DNA from: an uncultured Actinomycetes bacterium
GTDB taxonomy: Bacteria; Actinomycetota; Thermoleophilia; UBA2241
Assembly (NCBI GenBank): GCA_963755025.1
Contig: CAVWIH010000028.1
Coordinates: forward strand, 32,001-96,000
Length of the DNA: 64,000 nucleotides
Reading direction: 5' to 3'
Both the position numbers and the translations under genes were made by a program. Shown here one piece after another: positions 53,278 through 64,000 of the stretch (positions are counted from its first letter, which is position 1; each line of letters begins with the position of its first letter). The notes beneath the pieces were generated by a model. That model was given only the letters and a program-made list of their open reading frames with translations, was not told where the DNA came from and did no database searches.

Positions 53278-54724
53278 ATGGCCGGCAGCGCCGCGCACCT
53301 GAACGTCCGCCGCCTCGACGGCTTTGTCTGGCGAGATCCCCCGGCAGGGCGCCATGCTCGTGCCCGGGATCGTCTACACGGGCCCCGAGCTCTTCGACCA
53401 GTCCGGCCACGAAGAGGCCCTGCAACAGGTGGCCAACGTCGCCGCCCTGCCGGGCATCGTGCGGGCCAGCATCGCCATGCCCGACATCCACTGGGGCTAC
53501 GGCTTTCCCATCGGCGGCGTGGCGGCGACCGACGCCCGCGAAGGGTGTCGTCTCGCCGGGCGGCGTGGGCTTCGACATCAACTGCGGCGTGCGACTCGTG
53601 CGCACCGGCCTGCGCCGCGACGACGTGGCGCCGCGCCTCGAGGAGCTGCTCCACCAGTTGCTCAGTCGCGTGCCCACCGGCACCGGGGCGCGCGGCGCCC
53701 TGCGCCTGAGCGCCCGCGAGCTGCGCCGCCTGGTCGAGCAGGGCGTGCCCTTCCTGGCCGGGCGCGGCCTCGCCTCGGCCGACGACCTCGCGCACACCGA
53801 AGAGGGCGGCGCCCTGCCGGGCGCCGACGCCGATGCAGTGAGCCAGAAGGCGCTGCAGCGCGGCCTGGCGCAGGTCGGCAGCCTGGGCGCCGGCAACCAC
53901 TTCCTCGAGATCCAGGTGGTCGACCGGGTCTTCGACGACGCAGCGGCGGCGACGTTCGGGGTCGCCGCCGGTCAGTGGTCGTCATGATCCACTCGGGCTC
54001 GCGGGGCTTCGGCCACCAGGTCTGCACCGACCACCTGGCGAGCATGAACGCCGGCGGCTACGGCTTCGACCTGCCCGACCGCCAGCTGGCCTGCGCCCCG
54101 GTGGACTGCCCGCCGGGCGCGACTACCTGGCGGCCATGGCCGCCGCCAACTTCGGCTTCGCCAACCGGCAGGTGATGATGCACGAGGTGCGGGGCGCCTT
54201 CGAGCGTGTCTTCGGCGGGCCGCACGAACGCTCGGCCTCGAGCTCGTCTACGACGTGGCGCACAACATCGCCAAGCTCGAGAAGCACGCGGTCGACGGCG
54301 GCGCCGCGCGAACGTGCTCGTCCACCGCAAGGGAGCGACCCGCGCCTTCGGCCCCGGCCACCCCGACCTGCCGCCCGGCTACCGCGACGTCGGCCAGCCG
54401 GTCATCATCCCCGGCGACATGGGTCGCGAGAGCTGGCTGCTGGCGGGCACCGCCACCGCCATGAGCGAGACCTTCGGCTCGACCTGCCACGGCGCCGGCC
54501 GCCTCATGTCGCGCGGCGCCGCGCGCAAGGTCAAGAGCGGCGCCGACGTGCGCGACGAGCTCGAGGCGCGGGGCATCGTCGTCAAGGCGGGCTCGACCGC
54601 CCTGCTCGCCGAAGAGGCGCCGCACGCCTACAAAGACGTGGCCCGCGTGGTCGAGATCGTCGAGGCGCTGGGCCTGTCGCGCCGCGTGGCGCGCCTGCGG
54701 CCGCTCGGCGTGCTCAAGGGCTAA
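53278..54724 (+). CDS. rtcB: RtcB RNA ligase (several frameshifts)
   Basis: [74 protein letters not shown] spread across frames. Confidence 0.92.
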
Positions 54725-55674
54725 GCGCCGCGAGGTCACCGTGCGTTCGTCGGGGGGGCAGCCGGAGCTCGGTCTGGGCGATGTCTTCGTAGAGGCGCAC
54801 GGGCGACATCTCGCCGGCGGCGTCGCCGTACGGCGGCTCGCGCGCGCCGAAAGATCTGCTCGGCGACGGCGCTGAGCTCGATCGGCACGCCCTGGGCGCG
54901 CGCCAGATCGACTGCCAGCCCGAGGTCCTTGCAGGCGAGGGCCATGGCGAAGCCGCTCTCGTAGTCGCCGTCGTGCAGCAGCGGCAGCAGGTCGCGCTCG
55001 AGCAGCACGCTGTTGGCGGGACTGGCCACGAGGGCCTGATGGAGCACCGCCAGGTCGACCCCGGCGCGCGCCCCGACCGTGAGCGTCTCGGCGATGGCGA
55101 CGAGCGAATCGAACCACAGCTGGTTGAGCAGGAGCTTGACGGCGTAGCCGGCGCCGTGGGCGCCGACGTGCATGATCTTCCCGGGGTCGCCCATGACGGC
55201 AAAGACGGGCCGCATCTGCTCGAAGTCGCTCGCCTCGCCGCCCACGTAGATCTGCAGGGTGCCGGCCGCGGCGCCTTTGGCCATGCCGGCGACGGGCGCG
55301 TCGAGCACCCTGATGCCGCGCCCCGCGCCGCGCTCGCGCACACGCTCGGCGACGGCCGGCAGCGAGGTCGACATATCGACCCACAGGGCGCCGCCCGGCA
55401 GGGCGGCGAGCGCCTCGCCGGCGCCCAGCATGACGTCGTCGACCGCGGCCGGGGTGGGCAGCATGGTGATTAGCGCGTCGGCCGCCGCGGCGGCCTCGGC
55501 GGCGCTTGCGGCGGCGTGCGCCCCGGCCGCGGCGAGCGGAGCGATCAGCGCGGCGTCGAGGTCGTAGACGGTCAGCTCGTAGCCCGCCGCGGCGAGGCGA
55601 TGGCTCATGTGCCCGCCCATGTGGCCGAGGCCGATGAAGGCGAGGCGCGGGGCGCGCCCGCGAGCCGTGCTCAT
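54714..55674 (-). CDS. NAD(P)-dependent beta-hydroxyacid dehydrogenase (3-hydroxyisobutyrate dehydrogenase family; frameshift near 54840)
   Basis: Motifs [30 protein letters not shown]. Confidence 0.9.
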
Positions 55675-56174
55675 GGCCTGCGAAAGAACGGGTTGCGGGG
55701 GTCGTCGCGGGCGGCCAGCGCGTGCTCGACGTCAGGCAGCCCCGCGCCCGCGTTGCGCAGCGCGGTGAGCGTGGCGGCGCGGTTGTTGGCGTAGACCGCC
55801 TCTTCGTCGGCGGCCGCCGGGTTCACCCACACGGCCGCGATCAGCAGCAGCTCGTCGACGGTCGCCCGCTCGATCACGCCTTCGGCGACCGCTTCGGCGA
55901 CGCCCGAGGCGACGCCCGCCTGGGCGGCGCCCCACGTGAGGTCACCGTGCCGGCCCGGGCCGATCGTGGCCTTGTTGACGAAGAGCGTCATGGGCTTGAC
56001 CGCGAGGCCGGGGCGCACGACCGCGACGAACGGCACGTGTCCTTCGCGCGGCGTCGCGAGCGCGGTGGCCCAGGCGACCCCGACCGGGCCGTCACGGGGA
56101 CCGAGGACGGTGTTGACGTGGGCGGCGTCGACGCCCTCGCCGACGAAGCCTTCACCGATGAGCATGCTGTCCAC
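55671..56174 (-). CDS. fae: Formaldehyde-activating enzyme (Fae) homolog
   Basis: IGEGFVGEGVDAAH, KPMTLFVNK, GAAQAGVA, VYANN, NPF. The stop overlaps the dehydrogenase ATG. Confidence 0.9.
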   Translation of the reverse strand: MDSMLIGEGFVGEGVDAAHVNTVLGPRDGPVGVAWATALATPREGHVPFVAVVRPGLAVKPMTLFVNKATIGPGRHGDLTWGAAQAGVASGVAEAVAEGVIERATVDELLLIAAVWVNPAAADEEAVYANNRAATLTALRNAGAGLPDVEHALAARDDPRNPFFRRP

Positions 56175-56439
56175 CTGACCCGCTCTCCTTGCGACCGAAG
56201 GGCCGGCAACGTGCCGGAGCGTCAGAGTCGTAGCCGCTCGCCGGTCTTGCCAAACCGTCGCACGGCCTCGCGGCCCGGCCGCGCGGGGGCCCGGGCCGGC
56301 AAGACGGAGGAGGCGTCGGGAGAAGAGTTAGGAGTCTTTAGTCCCCGCTTCGCGGTAGAATGTTCTGTGCTATTCTTGACGGGAAGAACTTTTGGCTGAA
56401 AGACTCGCGTTTCGGCGCGTACCGACGAAAGGGGGCGGA

Positions 56440-56906
56440 GTGGACCAGCTCGATCGTGAGATCCTCGTCGCGCTGCAGACGCGAAGGGCGCAAGTCCAAC
56501 CTCGCGCTGGCCCGCGAGCTCGACCTCTCGCCGTCGGCCATGCTGGGCCGCGTGCGGCGCCTCGAGCAGAGCGGCGCGATCCGCGGCTACCGCGCGATCG
56601 TCGATCCGCTGGCGCTCGACATCACCGTGCAGGCGCTCACGGTGGTCAAGCTGCGCGAACACAGCGAGCAGGCCATCAGGGAGTTCGAAGACGCCGTCAA
56701 AGGCGTGCTCGGCGTGCGCGCCTGCTACCACGTGACCGGGCAGTTCGACATGGTCATGGTGCTGGCCCTGCGCGACCTCGACGCACCTCGCCCAGATGAT
56801 CCGGGTCGATCTCGCCAAGATCCCCGGCGTGATGCAGCTCGAGACCATGCTGATCATGGCCGAGTCGGTGGCCGACGAGGGCTGGCCGGTCTTTCCCGAA
56901 GAGTGA
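56440..56906 (+). CDS. Lrp/AsnC-family transcriptional regulator (two frameshifts)
   Basis: DQLDREILVALQ, GR.SN..LARELDLS..RVRRLE..G.IRGY, CYHVTGQFD, IPGV..ET. Confidence 0.88.
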
Positions 56907-56972
56907 CGACGCGCCGGCGCGTCGCGCCGGCGCTTTCCCGTCTGCGATCCTGAACGACCAGGAGGTACGAAC

Positions 56973-57831
56973 ATGCCGGCAAAGAAGGGCGTCCTCGAGC
57001 TTCACGAGATGAAGCGCGCGGGCGAGAAGATCGCCTGGCTCACCGCCTACGACTACCCGACCGCCGACCTTCGAGCAGGAGGCCGGCATCGACATGATCC
57101 TGGTGGGCGACTCGCTCGGCATGTGCGTCTACGGCTACCCCGGCACCGTGCCGGTCACCATGGACCAGTGCATCGTGCACTGCGAGGCCGTGCGCCGGGC
57201 GGCGCCCGACGTGTTCGTGGTCGGCGACATGCCGTTCATGAGCTATCAGATCTCCGACGAAGAGGCCGTGCGCAACGCCGGCCGCTTCCTTAAAGGAGGC
57301 CGGCGTCGACGCCATCAAGCTCGAGGGCGGCGTCTCGGTGATCAGCCGCGTCAAGGCGATCCTCGACGCCGGCATCGTGGTCTGCGGCCACATCGGCCTC
57401 ACTCCGCAGAGCTCCGGACAGCTCGGTGGCCACAAGGCCCAGGGCCGTACGCTCGAGTCGGCCAAGCTCGTCGTCGAAGACGCCCGCGCCCTCTACGAGG
57501 CCGGCGTCCAGCTGCTGCTGGTCGAAGCCGTGCCGCCCGAGGTCGCCGCGTTCATCCGCGACGAGCTGCCGATCCCGGTGCTGGGCATCGGCGCCGGCGA
57601 GCAGGTCGACGGCCAGCTCCTCATCGTCAGCGACGTGCTGGGCACCTTCCAGGCCTTCACTCCCAAGTTCGTCAAGAAGTACGCCGACCTGGCCGGCGTC
57701 GCCACCGCGGCCCTCACCGAGTACGTCGCCGACGTGCGCGGCCGGCGGGTTCCCCGAGGAGCAGCACTGCTACCACATGCTCGAGGGCGAGCACGAGCGC
57801 TTCCTGGGCTACACCGGGGAAGGACGCGTGA
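56973..57831 (+). CDS. panB: 3-methyl-2-oxobutanoate hydroxymethyltransferase (several frameshifts)
   Basis: [39 protein letters not shown]-like, [13 protein letters not shown] ribosome-binding site. Confidence 0.92.
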
Positions 57832-59056
57832 TCGCTGGCGAACGAGCGCCCCCGCCCACCCGCGCGGCCCGGGTCGACGACCTGGGCACCGAGACGGTGT
57901 TCGCGGTCGCGGCCGAGGCCGCGGCGCTGGCCGCCCAGGGCAGGACGGTCTACCCGTTCCACCTGGGCGACTTGAACCTCGCCACCCCGGCGAACATCGC
58001 CGAGGCCGCCACCCGGCGCCCTGCGCGACGGCAAGACGACCTACTGCCCCAACGCCGGCATCGCCGAGCTGCGCGCGGCGATCGCCGCACGACGTCGGCG
58101 CCGCCCGCGGCCTCGACTACACCGTCGAGAACGTGAGCGTCCAGCCGGGCGGCAAGCCGGTCATCGGCAAGTTCCTGCTCACGCTGATGGACCCCGGCGA
58201 CGAGGTGCTCTACCCCAACCCGGGCTTTCCCATCTACAGCTCGCTGATCGAGTTCTTCGGCGGCCGCGCGCTGCCCTACACCTACGTCGAGCAGGGCGAC
58301 GGCTTCGTGCTCGACCTCGAGCAGATCGAGCGCCTGATCACGCCGGCCACCCGGCTGCTCATCCTGAACGACCTGCACAACCCGACGGGCGCCGAGTGCT
58401 CGTCCGCCGAGCTCGAGGGCCTCGCCGAGATCGTGCGCCGCCACGACCTGCGCGTGCTCTGCGACGAGGCCTATTTCGACGTGCGCTACCAGGGCACGAG
58501 CCGCTCGCTCGCCTCGCTGCCCGACATGCAGGAGCGCTGCGTCATTCTCTTCACGTTCTCCAAGAAGTACGCGATGACCGGCTGGCGCCTGGGCGCGGCC
58601 ATCGGTCCCAAGCCGTTCATCGACGTCTGCAACACGCTCAACGTCAACGGCGAGTCGTGCACCAACCAGTTCGTGCAGTGGGCCGGCGTCGAGGCCCTCA
58701 CCGGCGACCAGAGCGGGGCGCGCGCCATCATGGCCCGCCTCGAGGGGCGCCGCGACGCGGCGCGCGAGATCCTCGACTCCACGCCGGGCATCCGCTGCCT
58801 CGAGCCCAACACGACCTTCTACCTGTATCCCAACGTCACCGAGGCCATGGAGCGGACCGGCCTCACCGACTACGAGAGCTTCCGGCGGGCCATCCTCGAG
58901 CACACGGGTGTCTCCATGTGCACGCGGCTGCACTTTGGCCCTGCGCTGCCCGGCGAGACGCAGCGCTACCTGCGCTTCGCCTACTCCGGTCTCACGACCG
59001 AGCGCATCCGCGAGGGCCTGGGGCTGCTCAAGACCTTCATGGAAAGCCACGGGTGA
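57828..59056 (+). CDS. Class I/II PLP-dependent aminotransferase (frameshifts near 58020-58090)
   Basis: [46 protein letters not shown]. The GTG overlaps the panB stop (GTGA). Confidence 0.9.
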
Positions 59057-59160
59057 CGCCCGTCGGTTGAACCCGCCATACTAGGGCGCTACGCCCAGAC
59101 GATCCCAAGAGTCCCAACGATCACCGACACGTGATCAGACCATGCGGAGGAGACAAGACG

Positions 59161-60612
59161 ATGAAAGACGTGCGTGACCCTGTGATCACCGGTCGCCTGA
59201 CGATGCTGTCCGAGAAGGGCAAGCAGGACATCTACGACGCGGCGGTGCGGATCGCCAGCGAGATCGGCATGCGCGTGCCGCACCAGGTGTCGCGCGACCT
59301 GCTGGTCGCCGCCGGCGCGACCGTCGAGCAAGGCGATCTCGTGCACGTGTCGCGCGAGATGATCGAGGCCGCCCGCAAGACGGCGCCCGCCCTGTTCAGC
59401 GTCTACGACCGTAACGGCGAGCCCGCCATGGAAGTCGGCAAGAACCACAGCTACTTCGGCACCGGTTCCGACCTCATGGAGATCTACGACCTCGAGACCG
59501 GCGAGCCGCGCCAGACCACCCTGGCCGACGTCGGTCGCGCCGCGCACGTCTGCGACGGCCTCCCCAACATCGACTTCATCATGTCGTGCGCCTACCCGCA
59601 CGACGTCGTGCCCGCCTCGCGCGAGTACCTCGAGAGCTTCCGCCAGATGATCACCAACACGACCAAGCCGATGGTCATGACCGCCGCGGGCGGCGAAGAC
59701 CTCGAGGTCATGTGGCAGATCGCCTGCGAGCTGCGCGGCGGCGAGCAGGCCCTGCGCGACAAGCCCTACTTCATCATGTACGGCGAGCCCGTGAGCCCCC
59801 TGCGCCACGCGAGCGAAGTCCTCGACAAGCTGCTCTTCTGCGCCGACAAGGGCATTCCCGCGATCTACTCGCCGGCGCCCAGCGCCGGCGCCACCGCGCC
59901 CATCACGCAGGCCGGCCACATCGTGCTGGCCGTCGCCGAGTCGCTGTTCGGCCTCGTCATCCACCAGCTCCGCAAGCCGGGCGCGCCGTTCGTCTTCGGC
60001 ATGGGCCCGGTCAAGATCGACATGACCACCGTGCAGGCCCTCTACAACTCGGCCGAGTACTACACGACCATCCTCGGCATCTGCGAGATGGCCAAGTGGC
60101 TCGACCTGCCGAACTGGGGCTACGCCGGCTCGAGCGACTCGCACGTGGTCGACGCGCAGGCCGGCATGGACGCCGCCGAGCTCACCCTGCTCTCCATGCA
60201 GGCCGGCTCCAACCTGAACCACGACATCGGCTACCTGGCGTTCGGCCTGATCGGCGCCCTCGAGCTGGTCGTCATCACCGACGAGATCATCTCGCTGAAC
60301 CGCCGCACCCTCGAGGGCATCGAGGTCAGCCCCGAGACCCTCGGCGTCGAGGTCATCGCCAAGGTCGGTCCGGGCGGCGAGTTCCTGCGCGAGAAGCACA
60401 CCGCCAAGTACGTCCGCACCCAGCAGTGGATGCCCACCATGCTCAACCGCAAGACGCGCGAGAACTGGAAGGCCGACGGCGCCCCCGACCTGCGCGAGCG
60501 CGCCCGTCGCAAGGCCCTCGCCATTCTCGCCGACCACAAGCCCGAGCCGATCGCCCCCGCCACCATGGCGAAGGTCGACCAGCTCACCGACGGCTACCAG
60601 CCGGCTCCGTGA
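59161..60612 (+). CDS. Trimethylamine methyltransferase (MttB) superfamily corrinoid methyltransferase, non-pyrrolysine
   Basis: SPL, GATAPITQAG, KPGAPFVFG, DLPNWGYAGSSDSHVVDAQAG, VGPGGEFL..HT. No in-frame TAG. Confidence 0.93.
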   Translation: MKDVRDPVITGRLTMLSEKGKQDIYDAAVRIASEIGMRVPHQVSRDLLVAAGATVEQGDLVHVSREMIEAARKTAPALFSVYDRNGEPAMEVGKNHSYFGTGSDLMEIYDLETGEPRQTTLADVGRAAHVCDGLPNIDFIMSCAYPHDVVPASREYLESFRQMITNTTKPMVMTAAGGEDLEVMWQIACELRGGEQALRDKPYFIMYGEPVSPLRHASEVLDKLLFCADKGIPAIYSPAPSAGATAPITQAGHIVLAVAESLFGLVIHQLRKPGAPFVFGMGPVKIDMTTVQALYNSAEYYTTILGICEMAKWLDLPNWGYAGSSDSHVVDAQAGMDAAELTLLSMQAGSNLNHDIGYLAFGLIGALELVVITDEIISLNRRTLEGIEVSPETLGVEVIAKVGPGGEFLREKHTAKYVRTQQWMPTMLNRKTRENWKADGAPDLRERARRKALAILADHKPEPIAPATMAKVDQLTDGYQPAP

Positions 60613-62068
60613 GGCAGGCGCACCCTGAAGAGCGGCCGCCCGTAGCCCGGCCGGCCGCATGGGCTGCGGGGACGGCGGCGCTGTGATCAGCGCCGCCGGC
60701 CTCGACGCCATCCACGAGGGTGCGCTGCGTCTGCTGCGCGAGGTCGGCTGCGCCGTCCTCGAACCCGAGGCGCTCGCCCTGCTCGCCGCCCACGGCGCCG
60801 CCGTCGACGGCGTCCGCGTGCGCATCGGCGAGGAGCTCGTCGCCACCGCGCTCGCGACGGCGCCGGCCGGCTACACGGTAGCCGGCCGGCGCCCCGCGCG
60901 CGACCGCCGCGTGGGCGCCGGCGCCGACCCCGTGCTCGGCCACCGCTTCGGGTCCCGCCTTCGTGCTCGACGCACGGCGAGCGCCGCCACGGCACGCTCG
61001 CCGACGTGCGCGACGCGGTGGCCCTCACCCACCAGCTCGCCAACCTCGACGTCTACGCCCTCGCAATCGAGGCGCTCGACGTGCCCGAGGAGCGCCGCCC
61101 GCAGACCATCGCTCACGCCACCGTCACCGGCACCGGCAAGCCGTCGCGCGTCGACGTCACGACCGCGCTCGAGCTGCAGGTGGCGCTCGACGTCGCCGAG
61201 ATCCTCTACGGGGCCGGCTGGCACGACCGGCCGCGCCTCTGGACGGTCATCAACACGACCTCGCCGCTGCAGCTCTCGGCCGACGCCGGCCGTTCGCTGC
61301 TGCGCCTGGCGCGCCTTGGCCAGCCAGTCTGCCTGACCGTGTGCGCCATGGCCGGCACCACGGCGCCGCTCACGCTGGCCGGGCTGCTCGACCGTGCAGC
61401 ACGCCGAGCTGCTCCTGGGGCTCGTGCTCACCCAGCTCGCCCAGCCGGGCTGCCCGTTCCTCTACGGGGGCACTTCGTCGGTGTCGTCCATGCGCAGCGG
61501 CGCGCTGCTCATGGGCGTTCCCGAGTACTGGGCCGTGGTCGAGGCGACGGTCGCCCTGGGTCACCGGCTGGGCCTGCCGGTGCGCACCGGCGGCGCCCTC
61601 ACCGATGCCCACGTGACCGACGCGCAGGCCGGCGCCGAGTCGGCTCTCGGCCTCGAGGCAGCCCTGCGGGCGGGAGCCGACTTCGTGCTGCACGCCGGCG
61701 GCATCCTGTCGTCGTTCAACTGCTTTTCGACCGCCAAGCTCGTGCTCGACGACGAGCTGCTCGGCGCCCTGCGCCGCGCGCGCCGGCCGATCATGGTCGA
61801 CGCCGACACCCTGGCGCTCGACGTCGTGGCCGCCGCCGGCCCCGGCGGCTCGCTGCTGGGCCAGGCCCACACCCGCCGTCACGCGCGCGACGTCGCTCCC
61901 GACGGCCTCATGAACCGCGACCCCTACGAGACCTGGGTGGCGCACGGCAGCCGCGACCTGGCCACCAGGGCCGACGCGCGGGTCGCCGAGCTGCTGGCCG
62001 CCTACACCCCGCCCGACGACTTGGACGAAGTCACCGCGCGGCAGCTCAGGGAGTACTGTTTGGCTTAA
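60609..62068 (+). CDS. Second MttB-superfamily methyltransferase, non-pyrrolysine (frameshifts; start 60609 or 60683)
   Basis: IHEGALRLLREVG, NTTSPL, AGTTAPLTLAG, QPGCPFLYG, LPVRTGGALTDAHVTDAQAG, GPGG..HT spread across frames. Confidence 0.88.
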
Positions 62069-62196
62069 GCGAGCGGCGTGCGCACGAGACGCCCCCGACG
62101 CCGGCTTGCCGCCGCCGCGCTCCCGGTCCGCGCCGGACACCACGTGGAGAATCACAGAAAAGGACTACGAAGAGGCTTCTCTTCAAGGAGGACAAC

Positions 62197-62847
62197 GTGA
62201 CCGACGAACTCTACTCTCAGATGGCCCAGTCAGTGATCGACGGCGAAGACGACACCGCCGCCGCGCTGGCCCAGAAGGGCCTCGACGCCGGCCTCTCGGC
62301 CGCCGACATCCTCGACAAGGGCTTCGTCAAGGGCATCGAGCACGTCGGCGAGCTCTTCGGCAAGGGCGAGTTCTTCCTGCCCGAGCTGGTGCAGGGCGCC
62401 GAGGCCATGAAGGCCGCCGTGGCCGTCCTGCAGCCCGCCCTCGACGCCTCCAAAGAAGGCCGCAAGGCGACCGGCATCGCCGTGGCCGGCACCGTGGCCG
62501 GCGACATCCACGAGATCGGCAAGACCATCGTCTGCTCCATGCTCTCAGCGGCCGGCTTCGAGGTCACCGACGTGGGCTGCGACGTGGCCCCCGAGACCTT
62601 CGTCGCCAAGTGCGAAGAGGTCAAGCCCAACCTCCTGCTGCTCTCCGCCCTGCTGACCACCACCATGCCCAACCAGGCAAAGACCATCGAGGCCCTGAAG
62701 GCCGCCGGTCTGCGCGACTCCATCAAGGTCATGATCGGCGGCGCCCCCACGACGCGCGCCTGGGCCGACGAGATCGGCGCCGACGGCTACGCCGAAGACG
62801 CCATCGAGGCCGTAGCGGCCGCCAAGACCCTGCTGGGCGTGGCCTAA
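62197..62847 (+). CDS. Corrinoid (B12-binding) methyl-acceptor protein (MttC/MtgC-like)
   Basis: Cap FFLPEL...AEAM, B12 motif GDIHEIGK, SALLTTTM, IGGAP, IGADGY. AAGGAGG ribosome-binding site. Confidence 0.95.
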   Translation: MTDELYSQMAQSVIDGEDDTAAALAQKGLDAGLSAADILDKGFVKGIEHVGELFGKGEFFLPELVQGAEAMKAAVAVLQPALDASKEGRKATGIAVAGTVAGDIHEIGKTIVCSMLSAAGFEVTDVGCDVAPETFVAKCEEVKPNLLLLSALLTTTMPNQAKTIEALKAAGLRDSIKVMIGGAPTTRAWADEIGADGYAEDAIEAVAAAKTLLGVA

Positions 62848-62895
62848 GGGTCGACCGAGCTCTGCCCACTCGTGGGCAGACCCGTGGCAACGCTT

Positions 62896-62932
62896 GGGGG
62901 GCGGGCGGCGCGCAAGGCGCGCCGCCCGCCCC
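62896..62932 (+). terminator. GC-rich hairpin after the corrinoid protein gene
   Basis: ggggcgggcggcgcgc / gcgcgccgcccgcccc with a weak U-tract. Confidence 0.5.
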
Positions 62933-63011
62933 GCCGACTTCGGTCCACGACCCCGACGGGCTACCAGCGAGGTGAGCAAAACATGGCCGACCGGCGTAGA
63001 CTTCAGGCGCG

Positions 63012-64000
63012 ATGAGTGACCGTAGCGACATGCGCGCGCGCCTGCGCATCCAGCCCGCCGACGTCGAGGCCGTCAACGCCTTTCTGGCGAGCCCCGACAA
63101 CCCCTTTGTCGACAGCCTGCTCGACGTCGTCGACAAGTACGGCGGGGTCGATCAGATCAACCGCGCGGCCGACGAAGCCGGCAAGCTCGAGAACCGCTTG
63201 GCGCGGCTGCGCGATGAACGCTCGCCCTACCTTGCCGGCGTCGAGTGGCTCGCCGAGCAGCGTGATGCCGGGGCCTTCGTCCGCCTGTCCGACTACCGCC
63301 GCGAGGTCCTGGGGTCCGACGCCGAGACCGCAGCCGCGGGCGACGCACGGGCGGCGGCCGACGCAAGCGCCGACGTCAACGCCGTCACCCTCGAGATCAG
63401 CGCCCTGCAGTTCTTCCCCTGGCTCATGGCCGAGGCGCGCCAGGCCATCGAGAAGCGCGAGCTCATGCCCGGGCGCTTCATCCGCGAGCGCAACATGGCC
63501 GAGCAGTCTCGGCCGGGCGGCGACCTGCTGGCCGTCTGCGCGGCCATGCAGGTGATCGGCGCGAGCCACGTCGAGAGTCTCGACACGCGCGGCATCGACG
63601 GCGCCAACCTCATGGTCGGCCTCGAGACGATCGCCGGCTACTTTGGCGGCATCGGCGAGCCCAACGAGCACGTGCTGCACTGGGTCGACGAGTACCTGCA
63701 CTACCTCACCGACTACGGTGTGCGCGAGGTGCTCAACTTCAACATCGGCACCATCCTGGCGGCCTTCGTGCTGCGCAAGCTCGGCGTGCACAACCAGTTC
63801 AAGGTCTCGGTCTTCATGGGCATCGACAACCCCTGGTCGGTCTTCTGGCTGCTCATGGGCGCGCGCCTGCTGGGCGACGACGGCGCCACCAGCCTGAGCG
63901 GCATCAACTTCTCGAACTCGGCCGACTCCGAGACCCTGCGCGCCGCCTCGGCGGTGCGCGAGTCGCTCGGCCTGCGCGAGGCGGTGCGGTTCGAGCACCA
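63012..64000 (+). CDS. Large hypothetical protein, truncated by the window end (absent from the ORF track)
   Basis: ATG at 63012 opens a stop-free frame to the edge: MSDRSDMRARLRI...VTLEISALQFFPW...ELMPGRFIR...ESLDTRGIDGAN...GYFGGIGEPN...FKVSVFMGIDNP...INFSNS...VRFEH. Strong GC3 bias. Confidence 0.88.
   Translation, partial: MSDRSDMRARLRIQPADVEAVNAFLASPDNPFVDSLLDVVDKYGGVDQINRAADEAGKLENRLARLRDERSPYLAGVEWLAEQRDAGAFVRLSDYRREVLGSDAETAAAGDARAAADASADVNAVTLEISALQFFPWLMAEARQAIEKRELMPGRFIRERNMAEQSRPGGDLLAVCAAMQVIGASHVESLDTRGIDGANLMVGLETIAGYFGGIGEPNEHVLHWVDEYLHYLTDYGVREVLNFNIGTILAAFVLRKLGVHNQFKVSVFMGIDNPWSVFWLLMGARLLGDDGATSLSGINFSNSADSETLRAASAVRESLGLREAVRFEH

Follow-up and report, generated by a model that had tools for sequence, protein, structure and literature searches.

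The cluster and its genes

The window analysed here is a 64,000-nt stretch of contig C28 (G000:C28:32001-96000) from G000, a genome assembly of 3.37 Mb in 39 contigs with 71% GC that is rated 84% complete. At its downstream end lie seven co-oriented genes, encoding an Lrp/AsnC regulator, PanB, an aminotransferase, two proteins of the MttB superfamily (MttB1 and MttB2), a corrinoid protein and a large protein here called Unk, and an eighth gene, for a methyltransferase, follows outside the window. The cluster is real and probably forms an intact, operon-like unit in a Thermoleophilia-type bacterium of soil or peat, and it joins two gene modules, each of which is conserved elsewhere. We define the first, tentatively, as Lrp, a PanB of a particular clade (PanB*), an aminotransferase or a Glu/Leu/Val-type dehydrogenase, and Unk, and the second as two amber-free MttB proteins with a corrinoid protein, which would strip methyl groups from a quaternary amine. 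Gene families were assigned with Pfam and NCBIfam, positions follow the numbering of the whole window, and the features of the cluster are as follows.

56440..56906 (+): Lrp/AsnC regulator; HTH_24 and AsnC_trans_reg on a frame piece; two insertions (near 56479 and 56783)
56973..57831 (+): PanB, of a clade without panC linkage; PF02548 in two frame pieces; AGGAGG before the ATG; four insertions (near 57067, 57294, 57743 and 57820)
57828..59056 (+): class I/II (AspC-like) pyridoxal phosphate-dependent aminotransferase; PF00155; GTG start; two insertions (near 58017 and 58087)
59161..60612 (+): MttB1, non-pyrrolysine member of the MttB superfamily; PF06253 at 266.8 bits; intact, no internal stop
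60659..62068 (+): MttB2, non-pyrrolysine member of the MttB superfamily; PF06253 in three frame pieces; ATG at 60659; three insertions (near 60937, 60972 and 61389)
62197..62847 (+): corrinoid protein, B12-binding_2 and B12-binding (PF02607 and PF02310); intact; DxHxxG motif reads DIHEIG
63012..64307 (+), running past the window end at 64000: Unk, 431 aa; no Pfam or NCBIfam match
64404-65180 (+), outside the window: class I S-adenosylmethionine (SAM) methyltransferase, the eighth gene; PF08241 at 87.3 bits

The initial annotation had described the seven co-oriented genes, and their families and strand are borne out by Pfam and NCBIfam, but it overlooked that the coding frame switches within four of the seven. 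It had also described two GTGA overlaps; the one between panB and the aminotransferase gene is real (57828-57831), but the one between the two mttB genes is not, as the GTG at 60609 lies in a different frame from MttB2 and a gap of 46 nt separates the genes. The intact 154-aa orthologue of the regulator in the relative G011 matches HTH_24 and AsnC_trans_reg in Pfam; among the NCBIfam models, no equivalog for the regulator and no model for the aminotransferase scored above its cut-off. A promoter and terminator scan of the cluster found no promoter-like site, and four terminator-like sites against 2.4 expected, none of them in the plus-strand intergenic gaps, a result that weighs on neither side of the question of co-transcription. 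The SAM methyltransferase follows Unk throughout the genus and scores 39.5 bits with the CpaM model (NF043040, cut-off 180), matching only as a generic class I enzyme of its kind; after it the strand changes, and hexapeptide transferases are encoded there.

Conservation of gene order

The order of the genes is kept in eight of the ten relatives that have panB, as well as in three further Thermoleophilia metagenome-assembled genomes (MAGs), which is beyond chance. In G011, rated 100% complete, all eight genes are intact and follow one another as in the cluster, never more than 169 nt apart. Two relatives (G006 and G007) have Lrp-panB-aminotransferase-MttB1-MttB2-corrinoid protein, two more (G001 and G003) show this order up to the contig end, and G023, which belongs to another genus, has the cluster order without the aminotransferase. 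Shorter versions are Lrp-panB-aminotransferase in G017 and Lrp-panB-Unk-methyltransferase, with nothing between, in G010. The three MAGs (L045, L046 and L075), found via PanB, have Lrp-panB-aminotransferase together with two MttB genes, and some of them also the corrinoid protein. Thermoleophilia MAGs are likewise the closest named records, with PanB 82-88% identical.

A PanB clade away from panC

The two PanB pieces of G000, at 193.9 and 99.5 bits, exceed the cut-off of 28.7, and the intact G011 orthologue scores 353.3 bits with PF02548 and 313.1 bits with TIGR00222 (cut-off 207.55). Alignment to the canonical PanB structures of E. coli (1M3U; 218 bits over residues 11-265) and M. tuberculosis (1OY0) shows that the blocks GDSLGM, DMPF, KLEGG, GLTPQS, LEAVP and GIGAG are all present, including the motif residues that we take to bind Mg or to act as base. 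The cluster PanB resembles canonical PanB in these motifs, in its TIGR00222 score and in being the sole copy of its genome. However, canonical PanB is usually encoded next to panC, whereas the cluster PanB lies away from panC, belongs to a separate clade and carries 13 clade-specific positions.

In a tree of 97 PanB sequences, built by a quick IQ-TREE search with SH-aLRT support only, 56 sequences form a clade with an SH-aLRT of 99 whose compactness is partly a product of sampling, as 80 loci were picked by similarity to the query PanB. This clade, PanB*, holds all 11 copies from the Thermoleophilia family f1, and the rest of it comes from Thermotogota, Chloroflexota, Armatimonadota, Spirochaetota, Thermodesulfobacteriota, Bacillota and Synergistota; L075 was left out of the tree, its panB match covering less than 80% of the query. 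PanC lies within 6 kb of none of the 56 clade members, compared with 16 of the 41 sequences outside the clade, and the panC-linked PanBs of the same class fall outside it. The canonical PanB motifs are kept in PanB* together with the 13 positions of its own. In the other families of the class, all ten PanBs above the cut-off adjoin panC. PanC itself was found in all 41 genomes searched and never adjoins the cluster panB.

For G000 the initial annotation had it right that neither panC nor panE lies near panB: the only panC match is on contig C19, and the genome has no convincing PanE (best match 25.7 bits, on C18). A second panB with panC, for which it had suggested a search, was not found in G000, where the cluster copy is the only PanB match. 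Seven genomes of f1 that are 94-100% complete (G013, G014, G016, G018, G020, G022 and G024) have panC but neither panB nor Unk, which suggests that they depend on external pantoate, and PanB is therefore dispensable in this lineage.

Two further ideas about PanB* were tried without success. A pattern of one housekeeping copy with panC and an extra copy with MttB could not be shown in G044 and G042, as their second PanBs (about 50% identical to the cluster PanB) do not adjoin panC by tblastn. A role of PanB* as the missing methyl-corrinoid:tetrahydrofolate (THF) transferase was rejected, given that all 2-oxo-acid motifs of PanB are kept.

Unk, an unannotated barrel family

More than 7,550 homologues of Unk are found at E <=0.001 among the matches listed, all of them unnamed and without Pfam domains. 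Unk has no NCBIfam match, and even with E raised to 10 no Pfam family matched meaningfully any of three Unk proteins and three proteins of a second family, c2, which is described below. A profile of 43 Unk homologues met only chance matches (E at least 1.2) among all PDB sequences, and no usable match came from the ESM Atlas with two members of the family as queries. The AlphaFold model made with the 43 homologues (pLDDT 83.4, pTM 0.86) predicts an N-terminal helical domain of about 120 residues followed by an eight-stranded beta/alpha barrel, with a strongly conserved glycine-rich loop that is modelled with low confidence, and the family has many invariant His, Asp and Glu residues. Foldseek matches of the model are weak and are led by class II fructose-bisphosphate aldolases (5U7S, E 3.8e-4, TM-score 0.35-0.50).

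The c2 family, of 312 aa, follows panB in nine other loci. Profile comparison relates it to the Unk barrel as a remote homologue (hhalign probability 79%, E 1.6e-5; a common FKVSVF strand), and its model matches a class II aldolase best as well (1GVF, E 3e-8, TM-score 0.48-0.53). Class II, metal-dependent fructose- and tagatose-bisphosphate aldolases are thus the best structural matches of both models. Unk nevertheless differs from them in having no sequence similarity in Pfam, NCBIfam or the PDB and in its extra N-terminal domain and glycine-rich loop, and the TM-scores lie in the generic TIM-barrel range. A search for longer or fused forms of Unk returned a single protein, P0121 (759 aa, from one metagenome contig), in which an N-terminal domain of the DHDPS family, a class I pyruvate aldolase, is fused to a full-length Unk with 56% identity; this fusion may have arisen through a gene-calling error. 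The Unk paralogues of G010, G011 and G000 stand in varied surroundings (a cyclase, an aminotransferase, a polysaccharide-deacetylase-like protein, RpiR, a second Lrp and EamA).

The PanB*-Unk-Lrp module across phyla

The neighbourhood of this PanB clade and of the open reading frame at 63012, which the initial annotation had proposed to examine, shows panB-Unk adjacency in Thermotogota, Thermodesulfobacteriota, Bacillota and Thermoleophilia, and MttB beside clade PanB in four lineages. Unk stands directly after panB in L048, L052, L055 and L058, which are one Thermotogota and three Desulfobacterales MAGs, and 1.2 kb from panB in 'Ca. Formimonas warabiya' (L077). A metagenome scan with the Desulfobacterales Unk yielded 25 loci, which are fairly close kin, one being the query's own contig and several being too short to judge. 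Among them, panB (68-73% identical to the cluster PanB) lies beside Unk in 16 and an Lrp gene is present in 17; a Glu/Leu/Phe/Val-type (ELFV) dehydrogenase follows just after Unk in 13 and an aminotransferase occurs in one; four have Lrp-Unk without panB. On one metagenome contig (L156, 1575-9254), two panB-Unk pairs stand in tandem and a third Unk adjoins an Lrp gene, which suggests that the panB-Unk pair diversified.

Within f1, ten genomes have both PanB and Unk, one has PanB only, two have Unk only and 12 lack both; as the genomes are related to one another, this co-occurrence is in essence that of two genera. The 16 genomes searched from other families yielded no Unk. Clade PanBs are repeatedly accompanied by an aminotransferase or a Glu/Leu/Val-type dehydrogenase, and other recurrent neighbours are LarA-like proteins (five loci), TRAP, BCCT or ABC transporters, and IclR or sigma-54 regulators. 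The surroundings of clade PanBs are unlike those of canonical PanB, being made up of Lrp, an aminotransferase or ELFV dehydrogenase, Unk or c2, LarA-like proteins, MttB and transporters. In Desulfocapsaceae and relatives (L083-L085, L087 and L088), the clade panB is followed immediately by a LarA-like protein of the lactate-racemase family in place of Unk or c2, and a TRAP transporter is often present.

The MttB proteins and their link to PanB*

To our knowledge, a substrate is lacking for most of the many genes of the MttB superfamily that occur in soils, sediments and guts, and the fate of the demethylated skeleton is rarely known. MttB1 matches PF06253 over profile positions 29-488, and the three pieces of MttB2 cover positions 33-112, 141-269 and 272-491. 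Neither has an amber codon, as initially stated, or any other in-frame stop, and their TIGR02369 scores of 339.9 and 292.5 stay below the cut-off of 525, so they are not pyrrolysine-type MttB. The corrinoid protein scores 68.9 bits with PF02607 and 93.1 bits with PF02310, and its G011 orthologue scores 221.7 with TIGR02370 (cut-off 215.3).

An amber-free MttB-type protein next to a cognate corrinoid protein recalls MtgB/MtgC/MtgA with RamA of Desulfitobacterium hafniense and MtgB/C/D of Ruegeria pomeroyi. In MtgB, glycine betaine is bound by Y97, R312, H348 and F356 according to the text of PMC13080624. Both MttBs were aligned pairwise to 9YCE, the glycine-betaine-bound MtgB, with an inferred offset of 2 between the chain index and the numbering of the paper. 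At the four positions MttB1 has S, W, H and G, keeping one of the four (His only), and MttB2, read from its intact G011 orthologue, has S, R, H and F, keeping three, namely R312, H348 and F356 (PMC13080624). Judged by these residues, neither protein is a typical MtgB. Since MttB2 keeps the carboxylate-binding Arg and His of MtgB, it probably acts on a quaternary amine that bears a carboxylate, namely a betaine. The cluster also departs from the MtgB systems in having two divergent MttBs in tandem, both with Ser for Y97 and MttB1 with one of the four residues, and in the position of the MttB and corrinoid genes between panB/aminotransferase and the TIM barrel Unk.

It was also correct that no methyl-THF transferase or RamA activator is encoded in the window: pterin-binding matches lie on C10 and C19 and RamA-type matches (RACo_C_ter) on C39 and C8, with none on the cluster contig. 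Such an arrangement is not unusual, as the MtgBCD and RamA genes of R. pomeroyi are scattered (text of PMC12478193), and G000 is similar in that its candidates for both functions are encoded away from the cluster.

G000 has about 25 MttB genes, and 39 and 37 matches are found in G011 and G010, so that the proximity of PanB and MttB is, within this genus and by itself, weak evidence for a link. Outside Thermoleophilia, MttB lies within 6 kb of a clade PanB in four loci (L059, L060, L070 and L077), and directly upstream of panB in L059 and L060. Desulfoluna spongiiphila has seven MttB matches, two of which directly flank PanB*, with a BCCT transporter and a corrinoid protein nearby; it also has a second, non-clade PanB, which is not beside panC by tblastn, and PanE and PanC elsewhere. 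'Ca. Formimonas warabiya' DCMF (G041; L077 and L129-L135) has 82 MttB matches and eight PanB homologues, three of which have MttB within about 110 bases and three of which lie beside an aminotransferase, and a different, non-clade copy adjoins PanE. Literature searches found nothing that links PanB with MttB systems or a PanB paralogue with catabolism, and the main text of the Formimonas proteomics paper (PMC9768040) does not contain the words 'pantoate', 'panB', 'oxobutanoate', 'hydroxymethyl' or 'aminotransferase'.

The corrinoid-protein gene (62185-62931) has copies that are 99% identical in nucleotides at G000:C26:2091-2837 and G000:C11:109383-110037, the latter contig carrying another MttB gene (C11:110250-111635) that adjoins one of the copies; recent duplication, gene conversion or an assembly effect could be behind them. 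Five other MttB paralogues of G000 have exactly one in-frame TAG (C14:383544-384962, C16:23860-25281, C14:392337-393638, C34:134667-136073 and C21:4604-5737), many MttB genes of G010 and G011 likewise have one, and a PylD homologue at C10:70114-70989 scores 173 bits summed over two pieces (cut-off 150). The Thermoleophilia-type lineage of G000 thus probably encodes pyrrolysine.

Genes upstream of the cluster

Two genes that are divergent from Lrp lie just upstream.

54736..55674 (-): beta-hydroxyacid dehydrogenase, 3-hydroxyisobutyrate-dehydrogenase-like; Pfam NAD_binding_2 at 144.6 bits, and NAD_binding_11
55671..56174 (-): homologue of the formaldehyde-activating enzyme (Fae); PF08714 at 174.5 bits; single copy in G000

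This pair is kept upstream of Lrp in G011, G010 and G006, and it was not found there in G001 or G003; both genes are possibly associated with the cluster.

A possible one-carbon pathway and its alternatives

Given that PanB* is associated with Lrp, an aminating enzyme and a barrel protein as well as with MttB and corrinoid proteins, we tentatively favour a single pathway, a reading that we hold to be quite possible if somewhat short of probable, by which a methylated amino-acid-type compound would be broken down and its methyl groups and a hydroxymethyl carbon passed onto folate. What the analysis shows is the gene families, their order and how far it is conserved, the clade to which PanB belongs and the fold class of Unk; from these we infer the coupling of the modules, the catabolic direction and every substrate named here. 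The two MttBs would transfer methyl groups from a quaternary amine to the corrinoid protein, with the methyl-corrinoid:THF transferase and RamA activators supplied from elsewhere in the genome. The aminotransferase, PanB* and Unk would then act on the demethylated skeleton in the form of a 2-oxo acid, and folate would carry the one-carbon (C1) units: the aminotransferase or dehydrogenase would interconvert an amino acid, probably the signal sensed by Lrp, and its 2-oxo acid, PanB* would move a hydroxymethyl group between the 2-oxo acid and THF, and Unk would catalyse a further step on the same 2-oxo (4-hydroxy-2-oxo) acid. As the only PanB in the genome, PanB* may also supply ketopantoate for PanC. 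A coupled C1 pathway of this kind had been put forward in the initial annotation, and gene context, through the PanB clade and Unk, lends partial support to the functional link that it assumed.

Several observations weigh against this reading. The sequence of demethylation and transamination proposed at first has a gap, as an MttB removes one methyl group each and a transaminase needs a primary amine. The conserved gene order within Thermoleophilia is weak evidence because the relatives share ancestry. Unk does not always adjoin the MttB genes: the distance is about 33 kb in G006, different contigs carry it in G007, G001 and G003, and no Unk was found in the vicinity of L045, L046 or L075. Three findings had been named at the outset as speaking against a coupled pathway, and one of them, a sole panB, is what the genomes show: panB is single in G000 and in each of eight of the 11 other genomes of the genus that have a match, where the single match is the cluster copy. 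Moreover, PanB passes the TIGR00222 equivalog cut-off with canonical motifs kept, and PanE has no strong match in the genus; with a sole panB and no clear PanE, pantoate synthesis therefore stays a possible role of the module. The support of the clade comes from a quick tree search, and the clade is not purely accessory, as G043 has a clade PanB as its only copy and the PanBs of G045 are 59% and 69% identical, within the clade-typical 57-73%, the second of them not being on the tree. Finally, many clade loci, often on short contigs, show no partner genes.

The main rival takes up these points. Lrp, PanB, the aminotransferase or Val/Leu dehydrogenase, and Unk might form a housekeeping operon leading from valine through 2-oxoisovalerate and ketopantoate to pantoate, with Unk, c2 or the LarA-like partner acting at C2 of ketopantoate, and might stand beside one of the numerous MttB/corrinoid clusters of the genome, with which they would have no common pathway. 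This is unlikely in our judgement, though it has to be taken seriously. It agrees with the sole panB of genome and genus next to a panC elsewhere, with the equivalog score and canonical motifs of PanB, with the clade PanB as the only PanB of G043, and with the lack of a clear PanE in the genus (g1) at the same time as PanB and Unk are gained and lost together in the family. ELFV dehydrogenases and Lrp regulators classically handle branched-chain amino acids, and with about 25 MttB genes in G000 and 39 matches in G011, chance proximity would not be rare. However, Formimonas has a separate PanB-PanE pair and seven more PanB homologues, and Desulfoluna has a non-clade PanB, PanE and PanC in addition to a PanB* flanked by two of its seven MttBs, which speaks against a housekeeping role, as does the L156 contig with its tandem panB-Unk pairs and third Unk. 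The BCCT, TRAP and ABC transporters and the IclR or sigma-54 regulators nearby are typical of uptake and catabolism, the fold of Unk is aldolase-like and not like known reductases, and the order Lrp-panB-aminotransferase-MttB-MttB is kept in several Thermoleophilia genera.

A bolder reading, which we consider rather unlikely, is that Lrp-PanB*-Unk with an aminotransferase or ELFV dehydrogenase constitutes a widespread and undescribed folate-dependent pathway that moves hydroxymethyl carbon onto or off amino-acid-derived 2-oxo acids and has been wired to MttB in Thermoleophilia, Desulfoluna and Formimonas. Homoserine-type 4-hydroxy amino acids, for example, would then be converted to pyruvate and methylene-THF, as a natural counterpart of the engineered homoserine cycle. 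That cycle (formaldehyde and pyruvate to 4-hydroxy-2-oxobutanoate to homoserine) is similar in its aldol-type addition of a C1 unit to a 2-oxo acid and its aminating enzyme, and PanB was among the candidate enzymes tried for it; it differs in being synthetic and in using free formaldehyde, and its link to the cluster is one of analogy only. If the widespread pathway exists, Unk and c2 would found a new aldolase-like enzyme family of more than 7,500 members, and all carbons of an amino-acid betaine except its 2-oxo-acid core would enter the C1 pool.

Improbable, too, is that the module runs forwards, fixing MttB-derived folate C1 units onto a 2-oxo acid whose product is then aminated (pyruvate to 4-hydroxy-2-oxobutanoate to homoserine, for example), for C1 assimilation or to make a special amino acid. 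The PanB reaction can be reversed and runs forwards in its known role, the aminating enzyme is a constant partner, a Fae homologue lies next door, and a SAM methyltransferase follows Unk throughout the genus, all of which would suit an anabolic route. Many carriers of PanB* clusters are, we presume, anaerobes with the Wood-Ljungdahl pathway and without need of such a route, and the nearby transporters and regulators suggest that a substrate is taken up. For an engineered, sarcosine-fed strain, the text of a preprint (bioRxiv 10.1101/2025.02.17.638773) describes that overexpressed PanB of P. putida partly supported the step that forms 4-hydroxy-2-oxobutanoate, which again fits the anabolic direction.

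The link has a wider bearing. In several phyla this distinct PanB clade is found repeatedly with the large, unannotated TIM-barrel family, and with MttB genes, which makes for a testable lead; two of the carriers are named strains, Desulfoluna spongiiphila AA1 and 'Ca. Formimonas warabiya' DCMF. Should the link be borne out, PanB paralogues would have a function beyond the synthesis of vitamin B5, the barrel family with its more than 7,500 members would acquire one too, and a new way for one-carbon units into or out of the folate pool would be defined.

Frame breaks in the assembly

The coding frame switches inside Lrp, panB, the aminotransferase gene and MttB2, as seen in a frame plot of GC content at third codon positions (GC3) and in the splitting of Pfam families over two to three frames. 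Alignment to eight relatives locates 11 extra single bases in G000, at the positions given in the list of features; all are +1 insertions, with no deletions and no stop codons, and none lies in a long homopolymer. The panB and MttB2 frames stay long despite the insertions because stop codons are rare at 71% GC, and GC3 stays at 0.9-1.0 across the frame pieces of the cluster.

Contigs of four soil or peat metagenome runs were compared over 56400-62100. They leave out the base at 57742, 57819, 58015 and 58087, and both aminotransferase insertions are absent from the contigs of three to four runs. Near-identical contig pieces across 56479, 56783, 57067, 60937 or 61389 have exactly one gap each, such as piece 16 of X2 (61270-61725), with one mismatch and one gap, and pieces that span no insertion site are mostly gap-free, the exceptions being the variable spacer at 59054-59160 or a diverged relative; 60972 is covered by no listed metagenome piece. 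According to a hidden Markov model of codon position, frame-break candidates number 519 in the 3,368,624 bases of G000 and five in 193,500 bases of the relatives' loci, so that the rate of the G000 assembly is about six times that of the relatives.

Given that relatives and near-identical metagenome contigs lack the extra bases, we therefore read the breaks as assembly errors, not decay, and conclude from these alignments that the genes are probably intact in nature. Programmed frameshifting was rejected, as it would have to act in four genes at 11 sites, all of which the relatives lack. That the 11 frameshifts are real and the pathway is dead in this strain, its genes being pseudogenes, is highly improbable: four of the seven genes are out of frame, and of the 519 six-kb windows that begin at a frame-break candidate, 24, this region among them, contain at least six candidates, but the uniform +1 insertions, the steady GC3, the near-identical contigs from other runs, the raised rate of the whole assembly and the split RtcB and PylD genes all argue against decay. 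In a genome of 71% GC, long open frames hid 11 assembly frameshifts, and automatic annotation would call such genes pseudogenes.

The PylD homologue elsewhere in G000 is split in the same manner as the cluster genes. Further upstream in the window, the gene for the RtcB RNA ligase (53324-54724, +) is divided over two frames, with profile positions 1-36 and more in one open reading frame and 291-426 in another, which looks like a further frame break of the assembly.

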